Source of the DNA: Laetmonice hystrix
Taxonomy: Eukaryota
NCBI GenBank assembly: GCA_965235115.1
Contig: OZ249436.1
Coordinates: 35,404,001 to 35,468,000, forward strand
Direction of reading: 5' to 3'
Length of the DNA: 64,000 nucleotides
Shown: piece after piece, positions 10,641 to 64,000 of the stretch
Numbering within the stretch: the stretch's first letter is position 1
Layout of the letters: every line of letters starts with the position of its first letter
The notes under the pieces: model-generated
The model's input: only the letters and a program-made list of their open reading frames with translations
Told to the model about the DNA's origin: nothing
Databases searched by the model: none
Translations under genes and position numbers: made by a program

Positions 10641-11075
10641 CATGTACCGGCACATGTTGTCGGCGAACCTGGCAAAAATTTAATTAATGCTACTTCAGAC
10701 TGATGGATAGGGGATATTATTCCACTGAACCTGGATGTGTTAGGATAGACAAACACCCAACGTTTTATAAGCATTTATGTGTTGTGAAGGAAATAATGCA
10801 AAGAAAGGTTACCCCGGTACTCACCTGCTCATGTGAAAATACAAACAAAACACTTATGTTTCTGCTAAGTTTACTCCATAAAAGCTTATTCTCCCTACCT
10901 TTTTTTTTAAAGGGTAGTGGTCATTTAATATTGCACATAACCGTCACAGCCTTACAACTTCACAAACATTTTTGATATTCTTTAATAATGCTGATAAATT
11001 TAAACGGAATGGTCACAAAATCCAATCCGGTGATGAGATTGTTTGCTTGTCAGAATACCAGCAGTCCCAAACCAG

Positions 11076-11790
11076 CCATTCTGGCGGTCCGAAATCACCC
11101 ATTCTGACAGTCTGAACCACCCATTCTGACAGTCTGAACCACCCATTTTGACAGTCTGAACCGCCCAACCACTCATTCTGACAAACTGCACCACCCATTC
11201 TGACAAACTGCACCACTCATTCTGACAAACTGCACTACCCATTCTGACAAACTGCACCACCCATTCTGGCAATCCGCCCCACCCATTCTGACAAACTGCA
11301 CCACCCATTCTGGCAATTCGCCCCACCCATTCTGGCAATCTGCACCACCCATTCTGACAGTCTAAACCGCCCAACCACTCATTCTGACAAACTGCACCAC
11401 CCATTCTGGCAATCTGCACCACCGATTCTGACAATCTGCCCCACCCATTCTGACAATCTGCCCCACCCATTCTGACAATCTGCCCCACCCATTCTGACAA
11501 ACTGCACCACCCATTCTGGCAATCTGCACCACCCATTCTGACAAACTGCACCACCCATTCTGACAAACTGCACCACCCATTCAAACAAATTGCACCACCC
11601 ATTCTAACAAACTGCACCACCCATTCTGACAATCTGCCCCACCCATTCTAACAAACTGCACCACCCATTCTGACAATCTGCACCACCCATTCTGACAACC
11701 TGCGAACCACACATTCAGACAGTCTGAACCAGCACCCATTTGGACAGTCTGCACCAACTATTCCGACAGTCTGAACCACTAATTCTGGCA
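11076..11790. repeat. 22-bp minisatellite, about 30 copies
   Basis: Unit CCATTCTGACAAACTGCACCAC with variants; starts about 13 nt past the WDR41 stop codon. Confidence 0.95.
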
Positions 11791-14800: not shown

Positions 14801-16031
14801 ATACTCTATTTCTTTTATCCAAAATTGATTCCATTTCAACAAATGCAAACTGATATGTAAACATGTGTGACATCTATCTAAGCAATTTTGTTGAAGTGAG
14901 TAGAGGGAAATGACAGTACCACATTCTTACCTCTATGTCCCACACAACAAACAGACAGTCATCCCGTACCACATTCTTACCTCTATGTCCCACACAACGA
15001 CCAGACAGTCATCCCGTACCACATTCTTACCTCTCTGTCCCACACAATGACCAGACAGTCATTTCGTACCACATTCTTACCTCTATGTCCCACACAACGA
15101 CCAGACAGTCATCCCGTACCACATTCTTACCTCTATGTCCCACACAAGGACCAGACAGTCATCTCGTACCACATTCTTACCTCTATGTCCCACACAACGA
15201 CCAGACAGTCATCCCGTACCACATTCTTACCTCTATGTCCCACACAATGACCAGACAGTCATCCCGTACCACATTCTTACCTCTATGTCCCACACAAGGA
15301 CCAGACAGTCATCTCGTACCACATTCTTACCTCTATGTCCCACACAACGACCAGACAGTCATCTCCTGCCGAGGCACACCTGAACAATTGACGACATGTC
15401 TACTTCATCATTTTTGGATAGCATGTACCAACTGATTAGCTTCTAAATGTCAAGGCTACAATATTTAACAATTACTTAGATACAAGATCTATAACAAGGT
15501 TATACTGTTCCCAAGAAAATCTCCTGTCTGCTGAATATTCTTTAATGAAAACATTTAAAGGGGAATTTTTTATAGCAAACAAAATAATAGCCAAGGTTAA
15601 CCTATTGAGACTTTCAATGCTTACTTGGTAGAGCTGACCTGGATGAGGAGGCGGACAATGTCGCTGTGGTGGGACAGTATTTGAACCTCAGTGAAGGGGT
15701 TCTCTGGCTGGTTTTCTTTGACTTGAACAACATCATTCTGTCATAACCATCAATGCAGAACAGAGTAAACTTAGCTAAATTAATAAATTGATAAAATAGG
15801 TATATATTAAACTTTAAAAGATCAGAAGCAACTTCAGAGCTATCTTTTGAGACTGTCATATATTTAAGGTTAAGTCTTACGTTAAATGAGTATACACATA
15901 TTTGTAAGTACATGCACATGATGCAGAGTATCATGTACTGCATTTACATGTACTGGGCTTTTTATGTTAAAAAGTTTACCCACCTCTGAGGTATCATCTC
16001 TTCGTTTACGACTCCTTGAACTTCTTCTCAT
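11803..16031 (-). CDS. WDR41: WD40-repeat protein 41 (C9orf72-SMCR8 complex subunit) orthologue
   Basis: Exons in transcript order: 16031-15984 (tentative start), 15737-15625 (QPENPFTEVQILSHHSDIVRLL), 15379-15331 (CASAGDDCLVVVWDIE), 14579-~14436, 14236-14174, 13848-~13737, 13567-13505, 13399-13286, 13180-13026, 12796-12672, 12480-12322 (LASCSEDGSIRLW), 12204-12117 (LLGECLAHSGAVQ), 11952-11803 (FVSCGLDGLLILWKDG...*). Motifs are colinear with human WDR41 as recalled (NPYTE..L..HHDIVR, ASAGDD, SCSEDGSVRIW, LIILWKNG). Confidence 0.9.
14916..15365 (-). repeat. 50-bp tandem array (9 copies) spanning a WDR41 exon/intron donor junction
   Basis: Minus-strand unit GAGATGACTGTCTGGTCGTTGTGTGGGACATAGAG|GTAAGAATGTGGTAC = 35 nt exon + 15 nt intron; copies every 50 bp from 14921 to 15321. 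Confidence 0.95.
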
Positions 16032-25848: not shown

Positions 25849-28800
25849 TTATACTCTCTTGTGCCAGGTTTTGCTTGTGATGTTTCGCACTCTTGCTGTC
25901 TGTAATATTTAGAAGAAAAAAATACTGAAATAATCTTAGAAAACTTGTGACTTCTCCCAATTAATATTTTAGGTTCTTTGAAATGGGGGTGGATGGTAGG
26001 TTAACTTTAGAGAAATATATAAATATGGTATCCGATGTGTGGACGTGCTTCTTTTTTTTACCCGAAGTGTTGTGTCAGTCTTTATAACATGGTACCGGTC
26101 AATAGTCTGCCCACTGGCTGACCGCAAGAGAACAAGACCACAGTGTCTCCATTCAGGCCAAGCTGACACTATGCTGAAGCCTCCGTTTTCTTTTAAGCTG
26201 TTATGTTCAGTGACTTTTTAAGGAGGTACTTAACTTCATTCTAAATGAGGAAGGAAAGAAGTGTTATGAGGAATTGGTGATTCACTATACCCACCACCAC
26301 AAGCTGATTGCCGATAACTTCTCGGGTCATCTGTGCATCGAGGTGAGGATCATCCTTGTCACGATGCAACTCCACAAACTTGCCATCCTCAACGTTCACC
26401 TTACTCTGAAACATGAGAAACATTCAGACTGGTAATGATGGCAACTGGGCACATTCAGACTGGTAATGACAACCATCAGACACATTCAGACTGGTAATGA
26501 CAACCATCAGACACATTCAGACTGGTAATGATAACCATCAGACACATTCAGACTGGTAATGACAACCATCAGACACATTCAGACTGGTAATGAATGTAAA
26601 ACACCTTTAGACACATTTAGTGGTGATGACCATCAGACACATTCAGACTGGTAATGAATGTAAGACACTTTTAGACACATTTAGTGGTGATGACCATCAG
26701 ACAGATTCAGACTGGTAATGATAACCATCAGACACATTCAGACTGGTAATAAATGTAAGACACTTTTAGACACATTTAGTGGTGATGACCATCAGACACA
26801 TTCAGACTGGTAATGATGGCTGTCAGACATTCAGACTAGTAATGACTTTTAGACACATTTAAACACATTCAGATTGGTAATGATGACTTTCAATCACATC
26901 CATACCGGGATTGATGACCGTCAGGCACATTCAAACTGGGAAAGAAGACCGTCAGAAATGTACTGGTGATGATGACCATCAGTCACATTCAGACTGGTAT
27001 TGATGACAATCAGACACATTCACACTGGTAATAACTTTTAGACACATTTATACACAATCAGACTGGTGATGATGATCATCAGTCACATTCAGACTGGTTA
27101 TTCAAACAGGCGATTCCAAGGGATAGGTCTACTTCAAAGATTCTTCAGACAGACACTGAGCTGTGACTAAGCGGTGATAGTATGTAGGCCATCTTGGTAC
27201 GTGTAGTCGTAACAGTACTTAGCAAATGTTAGTTTTTTAAAGGCTACAAGATAGGAATGATTCACCGTTGAAATGGGGAATCGCCTATGCAATGAGCACT
27301 CAGACACCCAGGTTCAAGTTTTATGGTCACACAAAACAAAACACAATACAAAACAGAAAGTGTAAAGTTGGCAGTGCACTCAAATGAATATAAAGTCTCA
27401 ACAGTTTAAGGCGTTTCAGTACCATCGCCGTTTCGGCACTTCAACAAGTGATACTGTTCACTGACATCTTGTATGACTTAAAAACGTTTGCAAAGTTCCA
27501 TGTTTTTACAAGATTTTAGCTGTTTGAATCACTAATCTATGATATTCGTTGTCTGATCAGTTTTGTGGCAAAGCTCTAGGGAAGAGGGCGCCGTGATCCC
27601 ATCGAAGCAAACAAAACTTTCTGCACTTTCTAAGTACAGCTGTGGGTAGTATGTACAAATGGTAATTTTAATCAGGGTTTCTTCTCTTTGGCACAAAGTT
27701 GGCAATAAGAAATCCAGTAGCAAGTAACTGACATGCATACAAGTTTAAAGAAGCCAGGTATAGATCTTTCTATTTTACAAAGGGCCGAGAAAGCGGGAAA
27801 TGGTCCTACCTTGATTGGTCTGCCATCCAGTGTGTAAGAGTCAAATTCCTTGCCAATGGTGTAATTGAAAGTTCGGCTCATACCGTTGGGCATATACACT
27901 GTGTAGGTCCATTTGTCACCGTCACGCATATACTCCATTGTAAAATGCATGTCAGAGTACATCTGCCGCTTCTCTTCCTCCATGTCTGCCAAAGAAGCAA
28001 AGGTTACAGTTAGTAGGAGACCAAAGAATAATCATCCTGTGTTGCATAATGCATCGGTAAAGTCTCAATAATATGAAAATGTTAGATGTTATTTTGAGCA
28101 TAAAGGTCTACACAGGGCCGTACTCGGTCAAATACGGCTAGGGGCCATATGTAGAACATAAATTTCAATCAATTTGTCAAAAAGGGTGTTTTTCCTCCTT
28201 GTCAAAAAGGGTACTTTTCCCAGATACCAAGCGACTGCAATGACAAATTCCTAAGACACTCGTTTAGATACGCTTAGTGAGAAACATTAGCAGTGGTTAG
28301 ATGGACACCAACCAGTGTTGTGTTATGATTTGGCCATCCCAAGCCGATCCACACTTTTAGTAAGTGTACGTGGGCCCAGATGCTGGAAGGCCGGTGACAG
28401 GACGAACTTCGATGAAGACCGTCACTGGGTGAACGTGGATCATATCAAACAGCAGCCATGGCTGTCATATCGCTTTTACTTGATTGCCCATCACATTTGA
28501 TTTAGCCACACCGGGTCGTTGCCCTTATAAAACTAGACAGGAGTCTGGTGCAGTCTATTAACATGGCTAGAGATTGGAGATCCACTCAAACAAATTGTAA
28601 GTAGCAATCCCATACTATGGCATAGTGTCGGGTATAGGGTCGTATTTGATGGAATTAAAAGTTTGCTTTCAGTTCAAAACTTTGATGAGAAACCAATCCA
28701 ATATCCAGTATCCAATATCATAACCTGTTCTCGTGCGAGGAGGAAATGCTAGTTATGTGTACTGAGTTGCAAGGGGTTTGGAGTCGAGGTCATTTCCCCA

Positions 28801-40400: not shown

Positions 40401-40476
40401 TGTCCTTGGGAGGGGGGGTAAGGGAGAGGGGGATCGGGAGGGGGGGGGGGGTGAAAGGCTAAAAAAGGTAGGCATC

Positions 40477-40880
40477 TGATGCATAGATTCCTATGTAACT
40501 GATGCATAGATTCCTATGTAACGTTTGTAAACCATGCATAGATTCCTATGTAACTGATGCATAGATTCCTATGTAACGTTTGTAAACCATGCATAGATTC
40601 CTATGTAACTGATGCATAGATTCCTATGTAACTGATGCATAGATTCCTATGTAACTGATGCATAGATTCCTATGTAACTGATGCATAGATTCCTATGTAA
40701 CTGATGCATAGATTCCTATGTAACTGATGCATAGATTCCTATGTAACTGATGCATAGATTCCTATGTAACGTTTGTAAACCATGCATAGATTCCTATGTA
40801 ACGTTTGTAAACCATGCATAGATTCCTATGTAACGTTTGTAAACCATGCATAGATTCCTATGTAACGTTTGTAAACCATG
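40477..40880. repeat. Compound minisatellite of 23-bp and 32-bp units
   Basis: ATGCATAGATTCCTATGTAACTG interleaved with ATGCATAGATTCCTATGTAACGTTTGTAAACC. Confidence 0.95.
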
Positions 40881-41065
40881 CACTCCCTCTCAGAGTAGAC
40901 TGCTATACCTGGGTAGATGGCGTTTCCCAGATTGGACCATTCACACGTGGGCAGATGACGACACTAATTGATTTCTTCGCAATACATTATCTTGTGTGTG
41001 GCCATTTACATCAAGTCGGATACCAACACCGTCGTGTTACGAGCAACGAGTGCGACAGGCAAACA

Positions 41066-42962: not shown

Positions 42963-43275
42963 AAGTATGAACGTGATCAGGTAATATGGAAACTGAAGAC
43001 TGTCGTCTTGAAAATACATGAAAACTCGGACAGACGTTGAGCCTTTAGATCAGCCTATAAACGACGGGTTGATGTAGTGTAGAGCATTGTAAAGGTGTGA
43101 CCATTTCATAACTGAAGGTTTCCCTCAATGCTATCTTTGTATGCTGACACCTTCCATGTATCTCACCATATATCAAAGACATTTTATATGATAGAATCTC
43201 TTTAATTTTTTTTTTACATATTTTTTTTACTCGTTTTGTTTCCCATGTAAAACAATGCCATGATGATGTTGACAG

Positions 43276-46085
43276 AGGCGATAATCCAGATGGACCCCTG
43301 CCGACCGAGATGAGGTTTGACCGTTACAAGTTCACCTTCCCCCGGCGTGGCCGTGCCATCATCATCAACAACCATACCTTTGACCGGAGACTTACCGGCC
43401 AGCAGGACCGCGACGGCACTGACGTGGACGCTGCCGCCTTGGAGAATGTTTTCATGGCGCTGAACTTCGAAGTGACTCGGTATGATAACCTGACGACACT
43501 CGACATGTCCATGAACATGAGGGCAGGTATGGTGTTCAACTGGTATAGGTCTAGTGGGAAAGGTTGATTTACTTAAAGATGTATTTACCTGGCGATAGCA
43601 ATATCCCAGGTTTCGATCAGAAATGCATGAATAAACAATAACAACAACATCGAATTTTTGTGTGGTTAATTTCGTGCTAAGACTTAAGTTCAGATGAAGA
43701 GGTGATCGTCTACAATTTAATTGTGGATGTGTTAATGTTTCAGTGGCAACCGAAGACCACAGTGATGCAGACTGTTTTGCGTGTGCCATTCTCAGCCATG
43801 GAGAGATGGGGGAAGTTTATGGCACCAATGGCAAGATAAAGATTGATAACATCACCAAAAATTTCAAGGCAGATGTCTGCCCTACGCTAGCAGGAAAGCC
43901 TAAACTCTTCTTTATTCAGGTTTGTATAAAAGAATCGTTTGACAAATCATATATTTTTTTTTACCAAACATGAAGTTGTGATCTTTGGAGATATTTACAC
44001 TTATTTTAAATGTCATTATTTCATGGAAAACTAGACTGCCTTTAGAGGACTCAGAAATCGTTTCTGTGTCCCTACTGTAGGCTTGTGTTGTAGCTTTGAC
44101 TGGGGTGCCACTGGGGTGTCGTGGGAGGAGGTTTGACTGGGGTGCCACCGTGGCCAGTAGAGCAGACCGTCCCTGTTTCCCTGTTGTAGGCGTGTCGTGG
44201 TAGGAGGTTTGACTGGGGTGCCACCGTGGCCAGTAGATCAGACCGCCCATGTTTCCCTGTTGTAGGCGTGTCGTGGTAGGAGGTTTGACTGGGGTGCCAC
44301 CGTGGCCAGTAGATCAGACTGTCCCTGTTTCCCTGTTGTAGGCGTGTCGTGGTAGGAGGTTTGACTGGGGTGCCACCGTGGCCAGTAGATCAGACCGTCC
44401 CTGTTTCCCTGTTGTAGGCGTGTCGTGGTAGGAGGTTTGACGTGGGGTGCCACCGTGGTCAGTAGATCAGACTGTCCCTGTTTCCCTGTTGTAGGCATGT
44501 CGTGGTAGGAGGTTTGACTGGGGTGCCACCGTGACCAGTAGATCAGACCGTCCCTGTTTCCCTGTTGTAGGCGTGTCGTGGTAGGAGGTTTGACTGGGGT
44601 GCCACCGTGGCCAGTAGATCAGACCGTCCCTGTTTCCCTGTTGTAGGCCTGTCGTGGTAGGAGGTTTGACTGGGGTGCCACCGTGGCCAGTAGATCAGAC
44701 CGTCCCTGTTTCCCTGTTGTAGGCGTGTCGTGGTAGGAGGTTTGACTGGGGTGCCACCGTGGCCAGTAGATCAGACCGTCCCTGTTTCCCTGTTGTAGGC
44801 GTTTTGTGGTAGGAGGTTTGCCTGGGGTGCCACCGTGGCCAGTAGATCAGACTGTCCCTGTTTCCCTGTTGTAGGCCTGTCGTGGTAGGAGGTTTGACTG
44901 GGGTGCCACCGTGGCCAGTAGATCAGACTGTCCCTGTTTCCCTGTTGTAGGCCTGTCGTGGTAGGAGGTTTGACTGGGGTGCCACCGTGGCCAGTAGATC
45001 AGACCGTCCCTGTTTCCCGGTTGTAGGCGTGTCGTGGTAGGAGGTTTGACTGGGGTGCCACCATGGCCAGTAGATCAGACCGTCCCTGTTTCCCGGTTGT
45101 AGGCGTGTCGTGGTAGGAGGTTTGACTGGGGTGCCACCATGGCCAGTAGATCAGACCGTCCCTGTTTCCCTGTTGTAGGCCTGTCGTGGTAGGAGGTTTG
45201 ACTGGGGTGCCACCGTGGCCAGTAGATCAGACCGTCCCTGTTTCCCTGTTGTAGGCCTGTCGTGGTAGGAGGTTTGACTGGGGTGCCACCGTGGCCAGTA
45301 GATCAGACTGTCCCTGTTTCCCTGTTGTAGGCGTGTCGTGGTAGGAGGTTTGACTGGGGTGCCACCGTGGCCAGTAGATCAGACCGTCCCTGTTTCCCTG
45401 TTGTAGGCGTGTCGTGGTAGGAGGTTTGACTGGGGTGCCACCGTGGCCAGTAGATCAGACCGTCCCTGTTTCCCTGTTGTAGGCGTGTCGTGGTAGGAGG
45501 TTTGACTGGGGTGCCACCGTGACCAGTAGATCAGACCGTCCCTGTTTCCCTGTTGTAGGCGTGTCGTGGTAGGAGGTTTGACTGGGGTGCCACCGTCGCA
45601 GACGGAGTTGAGGACGAGACTGATGCCGGATCTATTGATGACCAGTCCATTCGAAGAATCCCGGTGGAAGCAGACTACCTCGTGGCCTACTCTGTCGTGC
45701 CAGGTAAATATTTGTCATAATATGCTCGTCCGAAGTATTTTCAGTATTCTAATAAACTGAATAGCTTCACACATACATGTATAATGTGATTGAATTTCGA
45801 AGATTTAAATGAGTCAATGATGTAGTTTTAACATTGTAACTGCCGGTAGGTTACTTCTCTTGGCGTAACAACGTGGACGGGTCGTGGTTCGTTCAGGCTA
45901 TCTGCCGGGTTCTCCGCGAACATGGCCACACGGAGGAACTGATGAGGATGATGACCCTCATCAATAAAGTGGTCGCCTACGACTTCGAGTCGTGCACCGA
46001 TGACGACTTCACTAGCAAAATGAAACAGGTGCCATGCATGGTGTCTACTCTCACTAAGGAAGTGTTTTTCACACCAAAATATTGA
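43276..46085 (+). CDS. Effector caspase (caspase-3/7-like); N-terminus unresolved
   Basis: Exons ~43276-43526 (RGRAIIINN, RDGTDVDA), 43744-43919 (CAILSHG catalytic His; LAGKPKLFFIQ), 45559-45703 (ACRG completing QACRG; linker EDETD/A; IPVEADYLVAYS), 45850-46085 (GYFSWRN, GSWFVQ, KQVPCMVSTLTKEVFF*). Phases consistent. Confidence 0.93.
44050..45596 (+). repeat. 76-bp tandem array spanning the caspase intron/exon acceptor junction
   Basis: Unit GCGTGTCGTGGTAGGAGGTTTGACTGGGGTGCCACCGTGGCCAGTAGATCAGACCGTCCCTGTTTCCCTGTTGTAG. Acceptor AGs end at 44189, 44265 ... 45482, 45558 (19 copies) plus a degenerate copy at 44080. Confidence 0.97.
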
Positions 46086-50490: not shown

Positions 50491-51149
50491 ATTTCATGGG
50501 TAATTGGATCATGTAATAACGGCGCACAGACAGATCCCACGAGTAGCTCTGCACAATCACGTACCTGACTGGTATTTGTGTTAAAGATAATACTTGTTTG
50601 TGTTGCATCTTTTGGACGGCTGCGGTTTAACAGCAGGCCCTATACATAATCTCCAAGCAACAATATAATATGTAAGACTGACTTTATTTTGGCACAATGC
50701 ATTTTGAGACACGCTGTATGCCCCGGGATACATGTATGATCCTATTGGGCTCATTGGCAAATCGTGGAGCTTAATAAGCCTTCCCGAATGTATGGCCTCG
50801 AATTCAAGTCTTTGTTCGGGTTTCGTTCGTTGAATAGACCAACACCCCAAGGGTCATGGGCAGCTGGCCATTTAAAGGATAGCAGGGCGATTGTTTCTGC
50901 CGTTATTTTACAGCACTTGATCGAATACGCTAGACGGAATTTTTGGAGTCTCGCGTCAGCAGGCAAGGGAATGTTGGACTATATGGATTCGTGAAAAATG
51001 GAGTTTCCTACTAAGGTCCTCCTTCGTAAAGAAAGGATCACTTCCTCTGAAAGACTGACGTGACGTGAGAATGTCGGCCTAATTCAAGTGGTATTTCATT
51101 CATTAACTTTACTCGTTAAGGTGTATGGGTGCATGAATACATCTAAACA

Positions 51150-54100
51150 ATGCCGTCTGGAGTGACCATTTCCCATGGTGTATTCGTCACCGACAGGACT
51201 CTGAGAGAAGGTTCACGGCTGACCTATGCGGGTTCTGGCATTGGTCAGCCGCCGGCGAGGCAGTGGGACGGAATGACACCCATTGACGAAGTATGTAGAA
51301 ATTATTCCATCAGACGACCCGCCAGGGCAGACGTCCGCCCTGGCCGTGAGGTTTGTGGCGGGCGTGGACAGGAGGACAGGGGCAATACGGGACAGAGGAC
51401 AGAGGGGATGCCACGCCCACCGGCTCAGGCAATCCAAGGGTGTCAGAAGGCTACCAATGACAATGGACACCTGGTAGATGTTTCTTATGCTTACCAAGAT
51501 ATGCCAGGGTTGTTCCAAAGACGACGGAAGTCTTCAATGGACTTGTTTCAAACGAATCCTACGACTGTTAACCGCTTGTTGGAAACAAACAATAATGTGC
51601 AACCTGACGGAAGAATGTCTAGTCGGGAGAATGTTTCGATTCCATGCCAATCGACGGATACAAGAGTTTCTGATGACAAGCTGAAGTATCTGGTCAATAG
51701 TTACAATCGGTCTGTCTCCATGGAAGCTTTTCAGATCACAGTCTCTGAAAAGGTAAGACACTTGAGTGGTAGAACACTGTTTTATCTATCGTATAGCGCA
51801 TTTAGGCCTATTCATACAGCCCCGGTGGTTGTTTCCTTCACAAGAGCTAAGTCGTACACAATTTGACTCATGATCTAGACCAGTCCTATACTTTGAGAAT
51901 GGAGGGAATGTCATTAATTCTGATGAAGCCTGGGCCCGGTTTTTTTGTTTACTTTTCCACTGTGAGCAAGGGTGAGCTGAGCCGAGCAAGGGTGAGCGTG
52001 AGCTCATTCTGACCGTTTTCTTGGGTTACTTTTTTCCATGAGGCGTGCTCATGATGAGCAAGCTCGCAGAAAAACACCCCAAAAAACGAAAACTGTGAGC
52101 AAAACGGTGAGCATGAGCTTCTGCTCACACTTGCTCAGCTCAGCTCACCCTTGCTCACGGTGGAAAAGTAAACAAAAAACCGGGCGCGTTGAGAAGTTCT
52201 CTCTTGCCGCTGTTGGCATTAGTACGGGATATATGCTTTATGGCAGGGGGTAAAAGTAGATAGGATTTAAAGTTACCTGTACAGATTTACTGAACTCAAT
52301 ATGTGAACGTTGTATGTTATATCCAGAGCCAAGGCTGTGAATTCCACGGAGCCCTGCGGTTTTACATGGAGTCGGGTGGACAGCAGGTGACCAAGGCGAT
52401 CAGGCTGAGCAGTACGACCACAGTGAGGGACGTCCTGCCGCTGCTCGCCGAGAAGTTTAACCTTACTCGCCTCATGTCAGCTGAACAAGACCCAAGTCAG
52501 GTCATTGGGATTGTTCAGAGGAGGCGAGGAGGCGGTCAGTACCTAGTACTCTTCCTGCTGAAAGGGGGGGGGGTGTCACCGAGCCGGACTAAATGAATGA
52601 TATAAATAAACAAATAATTAGATAAGTAAATAAATGAGTCAATAGTCAATGAGCCATTTCGGCATCTAAGGTGAAGTCGGTGCAGCCAACATACAGCTTG
52701 TGAACCCCGTCAGACCTTATTGGAAGCACCGTACGAGCGTACTGACCAATCACAGTCCGTTTAGGTCTGGAAGTGGTCACTGGGAGGATTTGGCTTCAAC
52801 AAATAATGGTCCAATGGCAACCCTTATCTGACTAAAGTAACCCTCACTCTAAGTCGAGCTCTAGGACCAGTGCTAGGCCTACAGTGGTTACCCCTCCTAA
52901 GTTCAGAAGGACGGATTCCGCGTTTAAAGACCGTCTTCCTATAGTGAAACGAAGTTGACCTGGATCTATTGATGGATTTCTGGCGAACTTATAGTTTTCA
53001 TTGATGTCTAGCTCAGGATACGGCAGGATTTTCAGCATTACGTGCACTTCATGGCGGCAAAGTATAGGTAACTGTGGGAGAAAACTAAAGCGTGATATTT
53101 ATCATCATACCTGTATTTATTTCTCAGAGGGTCCGTTTAAATTAATATTTTGTTAATAATATCGTTAATTTACAAAAGATTAGAAAGTTATCCGTTTGGT
53201 ATCCTGTTCAGACAATGATATTTCAACGTCTGCAATACCATTATGCTCTATTCCATCATTTTTGCGGTTTTTGAAATTTTAAAATTTGACCTCAATTATG
53301 CCTTTGTATAACAGACTTTCCGTGCTTCCTGAGACACTTCCAGCCAAGACTGCGGTGGCCAGTGCATGGAATGTATTTCCATGAGGATATATAGGTCCAG
53401 ACCCCAGGTACCAGTGAGGGCGGTCAGGGTGAAATCTGGGCTGGAAGGATAATACGCTTATTGTTGGCAGCAATAATTGATCGACTGCAGCCTAGATAAT
53501 CCCCGCTCAGTGTAAATAAATGGGGTGGCTTGGCATCCACAGGCATTCCCCCAATAGGACCATTCTCAAGTGCTGGTACTGAACCAAGTCCTGTATTTTC
53601 TATAGGAGTTATCTAGACTCCTATATTTATATAAGTTGTGTAACTCTCAATCGTTATTCGCATTTTAGAGGATGTACCACTAGCCGAAAACGACAGGCCA
53701 CTGGCATTGGCGTTGAACTGCCGGAGTCGACCGCGCTTTGTACTTCGGATTGTTGAGCCAGCAGCATACCACGACCAGCCAAACACATCTCACTCGGATG
53801 CCGTTCAGTGTGACAATGCTGTGTTACAACAGGAATCCGTGATAAATGACTTTGGTGAGGGCTGTAATCAATGGAAGGCATCTGGGGAGGACAAGCAATC
53901 ATTGGCAGCGGCGACCTTCAATCGCCAGAGTCGGGCTCGCTCTGTGAAACAAAGAAAATCTTACAAGGTTGAGGACCACCAGGGAACCCACTTAGAAGAG
54001 GTTGCGCCTCCTGGTGGGGAGCAAGGGTTGGCGCGTCCGGTAACGGGACGCAGGAGACGTCGCGAGAGGTGGCCACGTGACACGAGTCTCGACAGGATAT

Positions 54101-57100
54101 CCACGAGGGGTAGCGTGCCGTTAACAACCCTGCTGCCGAAAACATTTAGTTTTCGTCACAAAGGGGATAAACATCGACGTGACATGACCGAGCTATCCAC
54201 CGAGGAAACCTCTCCTGGGCTGCTGAAGATTTTCGGGGATTCCATAAGTCCAGGAGCCCAGTATAAGAGCGTCCTTGCAACGCGTTCCTCGACGGCACAA
54301 GAACTAGTGAAGGAGGCATTAGAAAGATACAACATTCGCAGGAAACTCGCGCCAGAGTACGTGCTCTGTGAGGTTGTGGGAAGACTCGCTTTATCAGGGA
54401 ATCATGTTGAGGAAGAAGAACCCAGAAAGAGATCGCACCAGAACAAGGCGACATGGATGTGGGTTGAGGAATGCATGCGGGTTGTAGGCGACCATGAGCG
54501 CCCGCTAACCCTGCAGTCGTTCTGGAAGCCATCCGGACAGTACAGCCGACGGTTTGAACTAAGGCGTCGATCAACCATCGACTCTGACGTCGACACCATC
54601 ACTTCCGGGATCAACGCAAACGCCAGAAAACTCCTTATATCAAAAACAAAACTGGAAATCAATACGCAAAACGAGGCACCGGACTGCGAAAGTGTTGACG
54701 ATACTGATTTCAACGAAGCCTGCCCCAGGAGTGGCCAAACACCTTTATTGACATCTGACATAGAACCACAAGTCGATCTTGCATATCTCCCAAAGCCACA
54801 AACCCACTCTCCAGGTCAGCAGGGGATGAAGGCCCCTACATCAGAACCATATTTCCTCACTCTGAGGGGTTTTAACAGTGCGTATGATGATCTTGTTTAT
54901 ATCATCAATGAAAGGGTGACGATTGTAGGGAATCCAACCGGACAGTCCAAACGAAGCCGCATATGTCTGCAAGCTCCGGATGTTTTACCCGAGCACTGTT
55001 GGCTGACCAAGATGGCCGAACTATCTGAGGATAACAACAATCGAACTCAAACTGTAATAAGTCTTGATCCTTTACCTAATGCCCCAATCTGGATTAACAG
55101 CGTCAGTATAAGTACAACCGCAACACTGAAACACGGGGATATAGTTCACCTGGGGCATCATTATGTGTTTCTTTTCAAGGATCCGATGTGTGACGATCTT
55201 GACCTGACGTCTATAAAGCGCCTTAACGTTCGACAGCCTGATCAAGGGACCTGTCCCAAATCCACTGTCAGCCAAGGCAAATTCTCACTTTCCCATTCAG
55301 GGGACAAACATGACTTAAACCCAACCGGTCTTAACTCAGGTTTTACCACAGAAAAACAGGAGGATCTCTTGAAGCATATAATGAAAATAGTAGATTTATA
55401 TCCGAACTTTGGTAAATTAACGCCTGCCTACATGCTGTCTTCGTGTGTGGTCCAGGCCTATACAGGAAACAACCACGAACGGCTGGCGGGTCTGGTGGCT
55501 AGGATGATGACGATGCTCCAGGATATCGTCTGGGTACGTGTATGCTCATTTTCTTTCCGATTCTGGGATCATATTCCTTTAGTTTGGGGAACAATTCATT
55601 TTTTTCAACAGAATATTTATCATTTATTTGCGTTTTTTTAGGATTCGACTAAGAAGTTAGCAGACAGACAAGCAGACAGGTGGGTTGTCTTATGTGTAAC
55701 TGAGACTGTTTACAATGAAACGATGCCTTCGCAATTGTAGGCCTATATTTAGGGTCTATTGTCTCATAGCCTTTCAAGCTCGCTGGTAAGGGTCTGTTTC
55801 GATGTTAGTTATATTTTGTTATGACTTCTTCTATTTAGGGTTGAAATATTATAGTTACACGTAGTTTTACGGGGCACCACATCATGAACGAATTGCACAG
55901 TTATTACTACATTCTTTGTAGGTTGACGACAGCATTTTCTTTCTGATATTGTCAGATATTGCTAACATTGATGTGTTATTTCACAGACCAAGTGCTAGCC
56001 TTGACGAGGTACTTCCAGACCTGAAGCCTGTCATTCTGTGGCTATCCAACTCGGTCGAACTCCTTGGCTTCCTTCGTGATGACACGAACGCGTTCTATGA
56101 CGTGATAGAGACGCCGAACAAAGACGGGGACGACACTGAGTCTGACGTCCTCATTCTCGAGGATGTCGTGATTTATACATTTCAACAGACGGTGTACTAC
56201 ATAACAAAGGTAGGCCTACTGCGACTATCAATGACGTATACAGGAACGGGGGTTCCAAAAAATTGGTCTGGGGGGGCAAATTTCCCTGTTATCATGTTAT
56301 AATATTGCCAGGGCAAGTTAGGGGGGGTGATTCCAGGATACTTGGAACCCCCCCTGGATACACCACTGAATATGGAATCTGAAAGTTCATTTTTATATGG
56401 TTGTATTGCGTAATAATGAATACAAAATACAGTTACAATCTGAGGTATAGATTTTCCATCCAATAAAGCCCACACTACCTTAGTCTCAGGTCTAGGTGAA
56501 CGTAACGATAGCCTACTGCCAAAGTAACGTTGCCCACTTTCTGCAGACGCTGTACTCTGTCCTCTCGGCCATTTTGGACTGTAACCCATTCCACACTGAC
56601 GAGGTGCCGACTGTCAGTGGTCCAGGGCCCACAGTGGAGACATTGTTGTCGATCCTACAAACAACTCTGACAGTGATGAGGGAACACCTTCTCCACACAC
56701 ACGTCCTCTCCCAACTCTTCTGCTACCTCTTCTTCTTCACAAGCACGTCACTCGTCAACATGCTCATGGACAAAGGTAGGTAGGGTTGTTCAGGTAACAT
56801 TTAGGGTTGTTGTAGAGCGATTGCCCATTAACTGTTCCCGCCTAATTGTGGCACCGTTTGGACAAACAAGCGGCTTAAATTGTAGTAAAAAGAGAATTGT
56901 TTAGATTCACAAAAAGTCCTTTTTATGTAATAAGTCTATCCCATATAATATTATGTTAACAACGTGGTGCTATAGTATAGGCCTATATAATGGACATCAA
57001 TTATCGTTCTTGCTGTCCTGCCAGGTAGTGGAAGCAAATATTATCGATGGTCTCGTGGGGTCCACATCCGTGGGAACCTGGACGCCGTCGAGAGCTGGGC

Positions 57101-60100
57101 GGTTGTGTCGGGGCTGGGCACGGAGGCGTCGCTCCACCTGGGGCGGATTAACAGCCTGGCCAACCTGCTGGCCACGCCCAGATTACAGCTACTGACGGTA
57201 GGAACATTAGGACTACCTCGGGTCACACATATACAACAACCCAGGGGGGTGCGTTTCAATATAGCCCAAAGATATCTTTAAAAACCTCGCTGGAGCCATG
57301 TGCGAGGTTTTTATTGAAACACTCGCTCCCCCCCCCATCCATTTTGATTAAATCACGCGAATTAATGTCTCCATCCCCTACCCCCCCCCCCCCCCACCCG
57401 ACCCCCCACCCCAAAAAACTATATTTGAAATTATTTATGTAGGCAGACTGGAATGGCCTAAGAAGAAGTCACCCCGGAGTACGTGCGGAACACCTTCTGA
57501 AGGTTCTCAGAGAATACGAGTTGGGCCCCGGTCAGGACCGGCCGGAGGCGTGGGAACCACCACCTGGCGATCTTGACCTGGAGACGTGGACTGAGCGTCT
57601 CACAGACAACTTCAGAGACCACCCTCCGCTCCAGTTCCCAGACAACGGCTTTTCACGTGATCACCTCGGCCGACACCATGTACAGCATCCGCCCTGGTGT
57701 GAACTAGTTGATCGCATCTCCGACACCTTCCCCGACCCCGACAGTAAGAGAAACTACGCTCACTTTTCGGCGTTGTGTCCAAAACCTAAATTTCTTTATC
57801 TTAAAAAAATCATTAAAACCCCAAAGGACCCCCCCCCCCTCCTGAAATAGCTTCTGTAAGACCCATATTACCAGGGCTTTGAAGTCAAAAGCAATAACCC
57901 CCATTGTTAAATCTACTGTGGGTCATATTTGCGTACCGTACTGCACGAAATAACATTTGTTATTCATTTAAAATTCGTTTGTCAGAATCCGCTAGTGGTC
58001 GTGAACAAGCACCGATTGCTGCCCGGCCTGTGGCACCAAAGAGAAGAAGTCGGGAGGAGAAACGCCAGGCGGCGCTGCTGAACCAAGAGACCAGAGTGTC
58101 AGGCTCAGGTCGGGATCCGTTCGATCAGAAGGTGCTGGCACGGTACAAGGAAGGAGACCTTGGGGACAGCGGTATCAGTCTGTCCGGTGATAAACTGCTG
58201 TCCGGGGATAAACTGCTGTCCGGGGATAAACTGTTGTCCGGGGACAAACTGCTGTCCGGAGATAAACACGACACCAAGGACAAAGATACCAGTCAACCGT
58301 GTCGCTCTCACACAGACATCAGACCAGCTTGGCAAGCGATTGATCACTCTAAGATTGCCGCTCACAATGGCGGACAAAGAATGACGGCGACTTTTGGAGA
58401 GGAAGCCGTGACCGATGGCCATTCCAAGTCGTGGATATCTAAGGGAAATAAGTTAAGTTTTAATGGACAGGGCAGGCATATCGATACCGACCCCTATGGG
58501 ATTGAACCAGTTTATGTCAATGCTCCGTTTAGACCAAATTGTTGCCTACAAGAGGTAAGAGACCTAAAGGACACTACGTGCAGCAATGACGTCACCCCGG
58601 TGGCTCCTCTGGCCATGTCATCACCTCTGACGTCAGACAGTAGCACACCATGTCCGTCACCCACTGACGATATACTCATACCGCCTCAGCCGAAAATACC
58701 CGCACCGGTTCTTGAACGATCGTCAATAAAAAGACGAAGCAACAAGTCAGCGCGAAAAATCCAACATGCTGTCATAGAAGAAATCGATGCTGCTGATGGC
58801 ACTGAAACCACGTCCCGTACGTTCGCTGGGAATGAGGCTAAGATCGTTGTGGTCAACCAACTAAGACAGCCACCAGGTGGTGTTGTGAATGGTCTGTGTG
58901 TTCGTCCTTTAAGCTCCGACAACGAAAGACGATATAGTTTTGACAAAGGTTAGTTCTTTCCCTTGTTCTTACTGTGCTGATTTTGAACCGGCCAGCGATC
59001 TTTTCTTCTAGTCTGGAAAGTCGAAAATTGCCTTCTATTGGAACTTTCATCTTTTTATACCATGGTCACACATGGATACATAAAATCAGTTGTGGCCGGG
59101 AATAGGAATTCATGTGCACCATAATTCATGACTACATATTCCGTATTACTATTGTGTTCTAAAGAAGCTCTCAAACATTCTCTTTTTTTCAAAAACGGAT
59201 GCCCGTCCACAGGAGTAGATTTGAGGGAGGAGTGCGACTGTTCCGACCTGCCACGGTCCCAGAATGGACACGTTGTTCCAGGAGCTAACACTGATGAAGA
59301 TGATCCAGATGATATGTTTCTCATCAACTTGGAGAAAGGATCCCGGGGGTTGGGTCTTGGGCTCATCGATGGAATGGTGAGTTATCGAAGCAGGTCTCTG
59401 GGGCCCGTCTCACTAAAGGCTGGTTAATAACCAGATCGTTAAGTTAACATAGGAGTGAATGGAAGGCTGCTGGTTACTGTAACCAGCAGCCTTCCATTCA
59501 CTCCTATGTTAACTTAACGATCTGGTTATTAACCAGCCTTTAGTGAGACGGGCCCCAGGTCTGTTAACGTTTCCGGGTCATCAACGAAATGATCCCCTCG
59601 ATTACCGAAACGACTCCCTACTCCAGCCCTTCCAGTCAAACCTTTATAATCTTTATAACCCTTTATTTTTGTGGGCTTCCCGTATCTACTTTATTTTGAT
59701 CCAAATAGCCTTTATAACCTTTTTTAGCATGATGAGTGTGAAGTGTGGGTGGACTGAACAAAATGCAGTAGGCACCCTATAACAAAATTATAAATATAAC
59801 AGTATTGGAGGTAAGTGACTTCACGTGAATGATAAATGGCTGCAAAATCACACACTAAGGAAATACATGAGCTTTTGACTCTATACTTCACACTGAAATG
59901 CTCTATATGTTTGAAATCATAAACTTTATAAAAACCTTTCTGTCTCTATCCACTGGGAGGGCTGCTACTCTCATGCCGAATCGATCTCTAGGGACCCAAT
60001 TTTAGCTCATGCAGTTGTATGTTCGCGTTCATGTTATATTCCTACGTTCATGAAGATTCACGTCTTCCATGCCATTTCTGTTTGCAGTACACAACATTAC

Positions 60101-60416
60101 GGCGCCCTGGGATCTACGTGCGGACGTTGGTGCCATCCGAGCCGGCGGCGACGGACGGACGATTTCAGCTTGGAGACCGTATCCTAGCCGTCAACGGACA
60201 GAGTGTCGTGGGCGCCGACTACCAAAGGTAACAGTTAATAATGAAAACGGCATCACATCAGGTGTTCTCGTACGGTCTTGTGTCATGGCGCTTCATGTTG
60301 GTTTTTCTTCTTGCAGCGCGATGACAATTATCCGGGACGGCGGGAAGATACTACAGTTTCTAGTCGCCAAAGGGAACCGAACGATTACCATGCAGATCAC
60401 GTCGTCTACTTGCTGA
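51150..60416 (+). CDS. RADIL: Ras-associating and dilute domain protein (RA-RA-FHA-DIL-PDZ)
   Basis: Exons 51150-51752 (tentative start), 52327-52534, 53669-55533 (PGLLKIFGD...YKSVLAT...ELVKEALERY; DVDTITSGINANARKL; FHA LQAPDVLPEHCW...LKHGDIVHLGHHYVFLFKDP), 55642-55679, 55987-56209 (WLSNSVELL; YTFQQTVYYITK), 56547-56775 (SQLFCYLFFF), ~57025-57197, 57443-57742, 57986-58948, 59213-59376 (LEKGSRGLGLGLIDGM), 60088-60227 (DGRFQLGDRILAVNG), 60317-60416 (FLVAK...*). PDZ at the extreme C-terminus favours RADIL over afadin. Confidence 0.88.
51934..52185. mobile_element. MITE with long (~60 bp) imperfect TIRs in RADIL intron 1
   Basis: GCCCGGTTTTTTGTTTACTTTTCCACTGTGAGCAAGGGTGAGCTGAGC ... GCTCAGCTCACCCTTGCTCACGGTGGAAAAGTAAACAAAAAACCGGGC. 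Confidence 0.85.
58180..58266 (+). repeat. Coding 18-bp tandem repeat (LSGDKL x5) in RADIL
   Basis: CTGTCCGGGGATAAACTG repeated in frame within exon 57986-58948. Confidence 0.9.
59398..59558. mobile_element. 161-bp perfect palindrome (foldback MITE) in a RADIL intron
   Basis: 80-bp arms around a single base at 59478; ends CTGGGGCCCGTCTCAC ... GTGAGACGGGCCCCAG resemble the element at 21954. Confidence 0.9.
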
Positions 60417-60956
60417 TAAATTTTCAGTCCATGTGAAAGAAAAAATCTCTGATTGGAGACAAGTATAATTTATAATTTCCACAGTTGTGTCGAACCTCCT
60501 AAACGTTGGACACAAATGATACGTTCAAATGTGTAGAGCTTAGGTGTCTGTACTCTTTGGGTGTTCCTGAAATTGTGGCATACATTACGACTTCACTCAC
60601 ATTATATATTGGTATACTTTACTTTGTGTATATGAATTATTTATGTTAATTGTACAGCCACGCAAGCTCCACAGCTAAACGCCATGCCTGGTAATTTCTG
60701 ACTCTGAGCATGACCGACGTTAACATTTTTCATTTCTCCTATTTTTACTCTCTGTATGTAACTTTTTGGTGGTAGAATAAAGATGTCGCACTTCCCTGCA
60801 GAGCTGTCTACTTGCTGTGCGAAGTTGCACCGTATCTTCGAATAATCTGAACAATACTATTTCGTAGAACGTTATAGCAATATTCCACCGTTATACAAGT
60901 CGCAGTGTTCCAGTGCTCCACAGAGTGATTATTATATCTCGTAAATAACATAAGAA

Positions 60957-62758
60957 TTACTTGGAATAACCGTTACCATTACTCTTATACCATCGTGAAA
61001 GACACAGAAGGGTAATGAAGTCAACTATTTCACACACTGTCAGTACACTGGCGCCGAGAAGGAGTCCAAGGAAGCCTCCGACTTCCGAAAGCAAACTAAC
61101 ACTTGTGAACGAAACCTGCTGGGTGATCTTTTCGAAGCTCAACTCCGGGTAGTAGAGATCCATGGCTATGATATTATTCCTATAAAACAGAATACAAGTC
61201 TTATTGAATAGTGAAACAAAATAGAATATAAGCTGGGTGTTAAAGATTAGGCCTATAAACGGCGATAGTGGTTGTGTTTTTACGTGCATGCAGATACAAA
61301 CAGGTGCGAACTTTTTCTAACCGCTGTTGGCACATTTTCTGGATCAGGACCTCAGTCTGTTTAGCGTATACCCAATCAAACTATCCCACCCCTATTGTAT
61401 AGGTAATTATTGTTCCATGATGGAAACTTACAGAAAGAACGTGGCCGACATTTCGTTCCCTTTCAGATACGTATTCAGATTTTTCTGACATATTTCCACT
61501 CTTTCAACTAAATCTTCGAGATTCTTCTGCACCTCCACGCGTGCCGTCTCCATGATGGAAGCGAGTGGATATAGAGTTTTCTGAACAATCTCTGGAAGGT
61601 TCGACTGGGTGCCGTTTTGGATGTCCGTTAGTAGGTTTTCAATATCTGGAGAAGTCGCATTTCGGACCGATTCGATAAGAGGAAGGCGTTGGATGGAGTT
61701 CTTATCGAGGAGTGGCACAAGGAGGTCGAGAATGGATGTATACCACCGTTTCATGCCTCCCTCGATATCGTTTATATTCTCCACGATCGACTTGCAAGAT
61801 GACCGAAAGTCATAAACACGGGAGTTCATGTCGGATAAGAAGCTTTGAATGACCAGGGCGTTAAAACTTTCAGCCAGGGACTTCTTGGTGATTTCACCAT
61901 CCAGGTAGGAGGATAGCTTTGTAAACACTGGTACGGCCCGTTTACTGAGCACCTCGCTAATGGTTATCAGGTCTGTCGATAACGAGGGAAGTTTGTTTCC
62001 TATCATCAAGAGTTTGTCGTCAGCTTCCATCACCGGGCCAACGTATTTGTTCAGGTCTTGTTCTGCCTTGCTTGCCTTGGAGCCACCCGACACCCAATAT
62101 CGTTTGAACCACATGCACACAGACAAATCAATGGCTTTCAATTTCTCCAGAGATTCATAGGATTTGGAAAATTGTTCAAACACGCTATCGTGCATCGCCA
62201 ATGCCTGCCCAATGGTTTCCGAGACATGGATGCCGTCAAGATCCGTGATAATGTGTAATGGATCTAATAGTAAAGCGAGTTGTCCTAAGACATTCAAGCA
62301 GGTTTGGTGGAAATGTATAGTGGAATAGTTACTCCAGGTATCTCGATAAAGATACGCGACCGTTTTGTGGTACATGCTAGTGAATTTCTTCAGTTTTCTT
62401 GCCCCTATTTCCAGATCATGAATGGGCCTTGTTTTCATTGTGCAAATTCCGTATTTAAGGGTCTGGCATATGCTAAACTGCGGCGGGGGCGATATGGTTG
62501 GGAAGTAGTTCACGTTTGATTCAGGGGGATTTTTAGATCTTCCATCATCCATCCAACTATTATCCTCCTCTTCCTCCCCTGACGAATCGAAATCTTGACC
62601 CTCGTCCGGTCTGGGCGGCGGACGCTTGTCTCTATCACCGTACAGGTTTGGTGGACCTGTCATCGACGGCTTGTGACGCATTGCCGTCACAGGGCAGGCT
62701 TGGTCAGCTGGAATCACCACAACATGGCAGGTTTTCATTGATGTGGCGCTGGTTTGGC

Positions 62759-62799
<41 letters not shown>

Positions 62800-64000
62800 G
62801 GTGTTGTTGTGGATGTTTGAGATGTTGATTGGGATGTCGTGGGTGCTTTTGTCGTTGGGCTCACTGTAACTGGTTGCGTAGATGTCGTTGAGAGGGACGG
62901 CATTGGAGTGACAATAACCACTGGAGACGTACTGCTAATGGTTGTAGATTTGGCGCTTGTTGATTGTAAGGTACTTGACGGTAGGGGGTTATGGGTGAGC
63001 GTTGGCGCCGTACGCAGGGATGTTGTCGTGTCTCTAACTGAATAATCAATGGTTGGTGGGGCAGCCAGTGTTGTTTTATCGAGTATGTCATGTGGATGTG
63101 TTCCTGAGGTTGTTGTCACAGACGCTGGAGTAAGATATGTTGTCTGGTCGCCGGAAGGACCTGAAGCCCCGCTAGAAAGCCAATACGGGTCCATTCGGGT
63201 AGTCTCACCGACTGGGGTAAACACATGGTACGAGGTAAGGCTATCAAGAGTATCTCCTGAACTGTCGTAGTCGGTGGAGATCCAAGAGTCACCACTCCAC
63301 GCTCCAGAAGTGTCCCATGACATATCGGACATGACGTCACTATCAGGGTACGCACTGGTAGGTATATGTGACAGGGTGTCACTTGTCACCCAAGAACTTC
63401 CCTGACTGGTTTCCCCTGGAACTTGACGTTTATAGCGTTGATGACTCTCTGGTGGTCCCTCCATATTTTCTGGTGTTCCATTTAGTGGTCCTTCTGGTGT
63501 TCCATGCGGTGGTCCCTCTGGTCGTCCATCTAGTGGTCCCTGATCTGGTGGTCCATGCGGTGGTCCCTCTGGTGGTCCATCGTGTCGTCTATCTGGTGGT
63601 CCATCTGGTCGGCCGTCCGATGGCCTCCGTCTAGGATGACCATGTGGAGGGTGATTGTGGTCCAATCCGTCGTGGCCCCTATGGTAGTCGGCACCACGGT
63701 CGGGATCCCCATGGTAGTCGGCACCACGGTCGGGATACCCATGGTAGTCGGCGCCACGGTCGGGATCCCCATGGTAGTCGGCGCCATCGCCGGGGCTGCC
63801 GTGGCCGTGACCGCCGTGACCGGCACCGCCGTGGTCGTGGCCGGGACCGCCGTGGCCGGGACCGCCGTGGTCGTGGCCGGGACCGCCGTGGCCGGGACCG
63901 TCGTGGCCGTGGTCCCCATGGCCGTGGTCCCCATGGCCGTGATCGTTGGGCGGCGGTGAAAGGAAACGTTTCATGTCGGAATCGTCACACATGCCCATAG
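60957..64000 (-). CDS. DEG/ENaC (ASIC-family) sodium channel, last two exons; 5' part outside window
   Basis: Last exon 61179-60957: NNIIAMDLYYPELSFEKITQQVSFTSVSLLSEVGGFLGLLLGASVLTVCEIVDF (pre-TM2 strands, TM2, GAS filter). The upstream open exon (>64000-61432) joins in phase (CT|GTAAGT ... TAG|G gives Leu). Confidence 0.88.
62761..62810 (-). repeat. Coding (ACA)n microsatellite encoding poly-Thr
   Basis: (GTT)13 on the + strand inside the 856-aa ORF. Confidence 0.9.
63681..63786 (-). repeat. Coding 30-bp repeat (GADYHGDPDR x4)
   Basis: ATGGTAGTCGGC recurs at 63681, 63711, 63741 and 63771 on the + strand. Confidence 0.9.

Follow-up and report, generated by a model that had tools for sequence, protein, structure and literature searches.

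In the usual view of the DEG/ENaC family of channels, the finger of the ectodomain varies and the knuckle does not, a picture that is altered by a knuckle domain of about 500 residues unnamed in Pfam. The alpha and gamma subunits of ENaC possess furin-type sites in their ectodomain, located in the finger, and ENaC is activated by the proteolytic release of an inhibitory piece from this finger. In the ASICs, a wrist residue, His73, and a palm residue, Lys211, act as determinants of proton gating, according to the accessible part of PMC10507113. The N-glycans of the knuckle and the palm of alpha-ENaC have been presented as tethers to the matrix by which shear is sensed (PMC6955349, in the portion available), and the tether model is discussed for DEG/ENaCs in the accessible text of PMC10148893. 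The palm and the knuckle helix of FaNaC1 move relatively little when this channel gates, as reported in the available part of PMC11026163. The locus considered here, which occurs at the end of a 64,000-nucleotide stretch of DNA (the window), very probably corresponds to the 3' end of a gene for a lophotrochozoan, and probably annelid, ASIC/BASIC-like DEG/ENaC subunit, in which the knuckle of about 25 residues has given way to a helical stalk of about 500 residues interrupted by a loop. The residues equivalent to His73 and Lys211 map upstream of the window.

The last coding exon (60957..61179, minus strand) encodes, according to the Pfam ASC profile and an ASIC alignment, the strands beta11 and beta12, the transmembrane helix TM2 with an intact GAS filter, a short tail and the stop codon. 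It matches positions 399-455 of the 455 positions of Pfam ASC (E=1.2e-15, above the cut-off) and residues 403-456 of ASIC1 (E=7e-9), and the DEG/ENaC feature consisting of beta11-beta12 and TM2 with a G-x-S filter is present, in the form GAS. At the positions corresponding by alignment to Asp433 and Gln437 of ASIC1, two residues with assigned roles, the window gene exhibits Glu and Phe, respectively. The best matches of this exon among solved structures are ASIC1, ASIC2 and BASIC (PDB codes 6l6p, 6ave, 9mky; E 2e-9 to 5e-7), whereas the FaNaC/WaNaC match is weaker (E 5e-5 and 2e-3) and that to ENaC is weak (E about 1e-3). This comparison with the FaNaC clade concerns the last exon alone and suggests a subunit nearer to ASIC/BASIC than to FaNaC or ENaC, i.e., a member of clade A in the terms used in the accessible part of PMC10507113. 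The short two-helix knuckle of the ASIC type is absent, at least 855 residues being located ahead of beta11.

These residues are encoded by a giant coding exon (61432..64000, minus strand) of at least 2,569 nt with an open 5' end, which was delineated from the reading frame, the donor with its phase and the homologues, and which takes the place of the knuckle between beta10 and beta11. The reading frame (61428-63998, minus strand) runs over 856 codons up to the window edge without any stop, in agreement with the preliminary description of a segment of more than 850 residues contained in one exon of at least 2.57 kb. Three donor-like GT(A/G)AG sites occur in this frame, among which the site at 61431 is the sole one with the canonical GTAAGT context; it leaves phase 2 and fits in frame the predicted acceptor TTTTATAG at 61179, across a GT-AG intron of 252 nt (61180..61431, minus strand) whose position is common to the family. 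The in-phase splice to the conserved pre-TM2 exon that had been proposed earlier is retained as a predicted junction (61432/61179), based on DNA and homologues, and we similarly infer that the locus is spliced and that upstream exons encoding the thumb and TM1 lie beyond 64000. A true start at the Met1 codon located at 63998 is unlikely, the frame being open upstream and the relatives running about 190 residues further. Taking into account these 190 or so upstream codons, as predicted from the nearest relative (P0001), the whole insert is estimated at about 1,000 residues.

Residues 500-855, used as a query, retrieved 29 relatives among 1.84 billion representatives, all of them single-exon gene calls, with an identity of 46% for P0001, 26-28% for two others and 18-26% for the rest. 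The apparently helical sequence noticed earlier turned out, when this region was searched by itself, to be half of a conserved two-bundle stalk, of which the window contains the C-terminal half (aa 506-855, 61434..62483, minus strand), recognized from the family cysteines 511, 567 and 628 and from AlphaFold models of the relatives. These cysteines are kept in 30/30, 33/33 and 35/35 aligned rows, respectively, and the window sequence also possesses the other features of the stalk family, namely Trp630, Lys705, Pro762, the M-x-x-x-F-F-[ML] end and the phase-2 intron. The end motif preceding beta11 was found in 24 of the 29 relatives, 22 of which stop right there, an outcome to be expected if they share a phase-2 GTAAG donor. 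At the opposite end, the sequence of six of the 29 opens on the last cysteines of the thumb, followed by beta10, and the thumb-end motif occurs in 13 of 40 proteins; starts of this kind match positions 335-389 of ASC weakly in six proteins (E from 7e-4 to 0.09, in each case under the curated cut-off). Since the relatives span the region from the thumb end to beta11, the domain replaces the knuckle, and the insertion at this place put forward in the preliminary description is thus supported from both sides (6/29 thumb-end starts, 24/29 end motifs). As judged from these sequences, the segment is not a single lineage-specific novelty, and just the loop is unusually long.

No stalk match above cut-off was obtained with Pfam for the reading frame and 28 relatives, sequence searches of the stalk against the PDB gave no significant match (best E 0.005, for a myosin coiled coil, and 0.05), and two queries of the ESM Atlas gave no usable match to the domain. 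Full-length relatives were looked for in the protein database by a single-sequence search restricted to 624-2000 aa (one match among 4,280 candidates), by an alignment search restricted to 1114-3180 aa (none of 7,676 candidates) and by a third search (10 of 7,999, all single-exon pieces), while none of 116 pattern matches in JGI metagenome loci was confirmed.

Homologous long channels occur among the published transcripts, as far as the available parts of PMC10507113 and its supplement go. Platynereis comp416177, of 904 aa, displays the HG motif, TM1, the palm and the thumb, followed by the N-terminal stalk motif of the family, and its C-terminal part comprises the family end motif and a TM2 stretch in which 25 of 32 residues, compared by eye, are identical to the window. 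The 5'-partial transcript Lingula comp141642 shows the C-terminal motifs of the stalk directly joined to beta11 and TM2. Judging by length arithmetic, about 500 residues located between beta10 and beta11 are missing from the trimmed alignment for three Platynereis entries (1017, 1055 and 1067 aa) and one from Owenia (1054 aa); the insert was trimmed out of this alignment and is not mentioned in the accessible parts of the article. To judge by these transcripts, the subfamily comprises at least annelids and a brachiopod. The condition held to count against the preliminary description, namely that the exon belongs to a separate transcript, fails at the family level because TM1, the thumb, the start of the stalk and TM2 all occur in the single chain of comp416177. 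In the supplement, Ptychodera 1g20484 and 1g16645 show a shorter, apparently helical segment past the thumb, a region that is also long in A0A267FD09 of Macrostomum and A0A5K4FAF1 of Schistosoma; knuckle expansions may have more than one origin or be older than lophotrochozoans.

The fold of the stalk was predicted by AlphaFold on the relatives P0027 and P0001, the N-terminal helices of the window gene lying beyond 64000. The short form P0027 (31 sequences) was predicted as all helical, with a mean pLDDT of 82.4 and a pTM of 0.71, except for one disordered loop (183-227) containing RKKR. In the long form P0001 (35 sequences, including the window reading frame), helices extend over 50-199 and 600-945, with pLDDT values mostly of 70-97, and disorder over 201-571. 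In both models, small four-helix bundles align either jointly to the N- and C-terminal helices (about 60-580 and 85-940) or to another group of helices (128-369 and 149-740), and the stalk is therefore predicted to consist of two stacked bundles closed around the loop. Given the order and the lengths of the helices, the stalk would measure about 13 nm and the loop would leave it at the far end. A joint prediction of three copies of the distal stalk, in which the alignment was not used, had an uninformative score of 0.00. Foldseek gave no row at E<=0.001 among the 500 rows listed. With VIA-align, for which a Z under about 13 means little in helical proteins, an artificial maquette ranked highest (Z 13.2 and 12.6), along with generic bundles, among them helical pore-forming toxin folds, which were set aside as shape-only likenesses; the sensor domains of McpZ (Z 8.0, rmsd 14.7, 302 aligned residues) and TorS (Z 9.6, rmsd 4.0, 145 aligned residues, i.e., one bundle) both stand at the level of generic bundles. 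This absence of structural matches does not prove a new fold.

The variable loop (aa 5-510) is set into the conserved family stalk, and every module named in the preliminary description (His/Gly, GPP, RYKR, Ser/Thr, acidic patch and helical part) was found in the reading frame, on the minus strand. Cys4 (63987..63989) is probably the second N-side cysteine at the base of the loop and would pair with Cys519; this extra pair, with one cysteine on each side of the loop, is restricted to the long forms, the C-side one occurring in 4 of 30 rows. The His/Gly-rich repeats (aa 20-69, 63792..63941) form a candidate metal- or pH-binding patch and are private to the window gene, with 12 His in the best 40 residues as compared to 3, 7 and 6 elsewhere in P0001-P0003. 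They are followed by GADYH repeats of 10 aa (aa 70-110, 63669..63791; 30-nt period, 3.7 copies) and by Gly-Pro-Pro-x repeats (aa 111-184, 63447..63668). The latter are not collagen, because their period is of 4 residues (12 nt), and no uninterrupted Gly-X-Y triplets occur. A furin-type motif, RYKR (aa 188-191, 63426..63437), precedes the Ser/Thr/Pro-rich, mucin-like stretch (aa 192-421, 62736..63425), which contains 41 Ser and Thr in its best 60 residues and is probably O-glycosylated; residues 301-420, with 36% Thr, 17% Ser and 11% Pro, qualify as a mucin-type PTS tract, the counterpart of which is disordered in the P0001 model. The stretch is closed by the Cys424/Cys435 pair (62694..62729), common to all four long forms. 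A second furin-type motif, RDKR (aa 456-459, 62622..62633), is absent from P0001-P0003, and the acidic patch (aa 470-488, 62535..62591) ends in a Ser-Trp motif common to the four long forms.

Depending on the relative, the loop between the flanking cysteines comprises 57-60 aa in P0016 and P0027, and 405, 551 and 687 aa in the long forms P0001-P0003; it exceeds 506 aa in the window. The four long forms, the window gene among them, share a series of ordered landmarks, consisting of the extra flanking cysteines, a dibasic site, a Ser/Thr/Pro tract, the internal Cys pair, the acidic patch and Ser-Trp. Ser and Thr account for 25-32% of all four loops, and the intervening sequence is unrelated and varies in length.

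The 30 bins of 58000-64000 are all covered by contigs, which come from three runs on the same sample, and the intron 61180..61431 is crossed, together with both exon ends, by single contigs. Among 40 of the 68 variant rows, 19 fall in the reading frame, of which 8 are synonymous and 11 non-synonymous, with no stop; the synonymous share expected is 0.22 against the 8/19 seen (p about 0.04, with no transition correction). The indel rows keep the frame in 3/3 cases within the reading frame, all three sitting in triplet-based repeats, versus 1/9 outside. These data give weak support to a live and fast-evolving giant exon. The length of the loop is polymorphic, with changes that keep the frame (15, 3 and 6 nt at 62835, 63541 and 63866), and a 59-residue repeat distinguishes P0001 from P0030, the nearest relative being represented by these two alleles or close copies.

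Several other features were observed in the window. A gene resembling RADIL/afadin, with RA, FHA and PDZ matches, occupies about 51147-60416 on the plus strand and is convergent with the channel gene, the two coding ends being separated by about 550 nt; since the nearest AATAAA on the channel strand (59695) is located inside its span, the 3' ends may overlap. A perfect 80-nt inverted repeat at 59398-59558, where the summed contig depth reaches about 150,000, resembles a high-copy MITE in an intron of this neighbouring gene; it would be polymorphic here, since in each of the three runs contigs pass over 59398-59555. Two similar GH18 chitinase exons (2314-2745 and 7985-8407, plus strand) belong to tandem genes or to a two-domain chitinase; a fatty-acid-binding-protein-like exon (27675-28031, minus strand) is below the cut-off, and a caspase exon occurs at 43148-43564 (plus strand). 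A minisatellite of 19.5 copies of 76 nt with 97% identity extends over 44116-45596, and others are located at 11070-11787, 14916-15363, 26412-27098 and 40476-40882.

With respect to function, our tentative reading is that the stalk acts as a built-in lever or tether to mucus, glycocalyx or cuticle, with force-from-filament gating, and we infer its gating steps as follows. The stalk would be rooted on the palm strands beta10 and beta11. Two disulfides probably clamp the base of the loop, and furin cutting would therefore leave two tethered tails. The glycosylated, His-rich loop would grip one of these materials, from which shear or stretch would travel down the rigid stalk to beta10/beta11, altering the open probability. 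Since the long-form loops keep their composition and landmarks, and not their sequence or length, a physical tether fits better than a specific pocket, and the matrix-tethering glycans of alpha-ENaC (PMC6955349) and the tether model of DEG/ENaCs (PMC10148893) serve as precedents. Against the tether, most family members are short-looped (57-60 aa in P0016 and P0027), so that a mucin tail cannot be required for what the stalk did ancestrally, the position of the His-rich patch is not conserved in the relatives, the 11 non-synonymous variants out of 19 (among 40 of 68 rows) point to a weak constraint, and the static knuckle and palm of FaNaC1, as described in the available part of PMC11026163, imply that the pore does not necessarily open when the knuckle is pulled. 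A broader proposal, which we hold to be doubtful, is that of a widespread, hitherto undescribed lophotrochozoan subfamily with its own force or ligand antenna, made of three knuckle stalks of about 13 nm at the apex of the trimer, whose long forms would end in furin-opened, disulfide-clamped, glycosylated and His-rich tails binding mucus or cuticle.

Other explanations have to be weighed against this tether. The stalk could be a ligand sensor, in which a peptide, a small molecule, a transition metal or a proton would bind to the bundles or to the His/Gly patch, upon which the long helices would slide like a piston or rotate and thereby gate the palm, by analogy with the bacterial bimodular helical sensors. 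The predicted architecture of two stacked bundles linked by long helices, the 28 His within aa 1-190 and the divergence of the paralogues (18-28% identity), which would suit a ligand repertoire, are consistent with such a role, as is the knuckle helix of FaNaC1 lining the peptide pocket (PMC11026163, available part). However, the weak structural rows of McpZ (Z 8.0) and TorS (Z 9.6) that speak for it are no better than generic bundles, the conserved residues are cysteines, one Trp, one Lys and one Pro, with no pocket motif, and the His patch is private to the window gene; we regard a ligand sensor as unlikely. It is quite unlikely that the loop works as a proteolytic switch, from which furin or surface proteases would cut and release an inhibitory piece as in ENaC, but at the knuckle and not at the finger. 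An R-x-K/R-R motif occurs inside the loop of 12 of the 16 non-redundant relatives spanning it, short forms included, and the two sites of the window flank the mucin stretch (aa 188-191 and 456-459), but 10 of these 12 carriers belong to one subfamily favoured by one database search, the loop of P0002, P0018, P0025 and P0029 is devoid of a canonical furin site, the second site RDKR is not conserved, and, should the inferred topology be correct, a long distance would separate the loop from the pore.

The appendage might also be non-gating, as a spacer, a shield or a sorting device in mucus or microvilli, or serve to block toxins or proteases or to restrict co-assembly among paralogues. The quick turnover of the loop, with its in-frame indels of 15, 3 and 6 nt and the 59-residue repeat difference between P0001 and P0030, agrees with this, together with the static knuckle in FaNaC1 gating (PMC11026163, available part); a cysteine-pinned fold of about 500 residues kept in annelids and a brachiopod would nevertheless be costly for a passive role, and we consider this explanation improbable. 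It is highly improbable that the big exon lies outside a working channel, as a separate or secreted transcript, a skipped exon or a decaying copy, even though TM1 and the thumb would be located outside the window and 11 of the 19 variants of the reading frame (among 40 of 68 rows) alter a residue. Indeed, 2.57 kb are open, none of the variants listed introduces a stop, the indels keep the frame in 3/3 cases versus 1/9 outside (an argument weakened by the triplet repeats), the splice phase fits, the GAS filter is intact, the homologous transcripts, in the accessible part of PMC10507113, join the stalk to TM2, and exon skipping would, as deduced from P0001, also delete the thumb end and beta10.

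The stalk considered as a channel-borne tether would, if true, provide a DEG/ENaC gated via its knuckle by a tether encoded by the channel itself, and render the long-debated tether model testable with a single cDNA. If the stalk gates, force-from-filament gating could be tested with one gene, whereas it has so far been difficult to demonstrate because the tether partners are separate proteins, and the natural short- and long-loop forms are ready-made comparisons. The stalk domain also represents a new structural target. A knuckle stalk is not described in the DEG/ENaC and Platynereis-expression literature searched, in which subscription papers are thinly covered, including the accessible parts of PMC10507113, PMC9234716, PMC11026163, PMC10148893 and PMC7992859; the knuckle graft, the unnamed fold and the long-loop subtype appear to be undescribed, the sequences themselves being already in the databases.

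Compared to the known systems, the window gene resembles ASIC1, ASIC2 and BASIC by its beta11-beta12-TM2 region with the GAS filter, but it differs from ordinary channels, the knuckle of which comprises about 25 aa, by an insert of about 1,000 aa, as estimated from P0001 and the window. FaNaC and WaNaC are also lophotrochozoan DEG/ENaCs, with a knuckle helix that borders the ligand site (PMC11026163, available part), but they belong to clade B in the terms of PMC10507113 and possess an ordinary knuckle, as far as the accessible texts go. Large ectodomain additions are common in invertebrate DEG/ENaCs, which contain LDLa-, MAM-, WSC-, EGF- and mucin-like modules (named by eye, except WSC and EGF, taken from record titles, in the available part of PMC10507113). 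These modules sit after TM1/beta1, on the finger side, whereas those of the window occur on the knuckle, borne by a dedicated helical stalk; finger-side additions being common, the window segment is less surprising. In the same source, Owenia G19963 and amphioxus 237150R exhibit dibasic sites and Thr-rich tracts in the finger, with a loop chemistry as in the window. The long DEG/ENaCs comprised in the accessible part of PMC10507113, i.e., Platynereis comp416177, comp413124, comp411397, comp400938 and comp419518, Owenia G051249 and Lingula comp141642, likewise have a long beta10-beta11 segment, with inserts of about 450-530 aa (by length arithmetic) of the short-loop type, to which the window loop adds about 450 aa. 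Finally, alpha and gamma ENaC share with the window gene the furin-type sites of the ectodomain, and the knuckle glycan reported as a matrix tether in ENaC (PMC6955349, in the portion available) is comparable to the tether proposed here, the ENaC tether being a single N-glycan in contrast to the protein stalk of the window gene.
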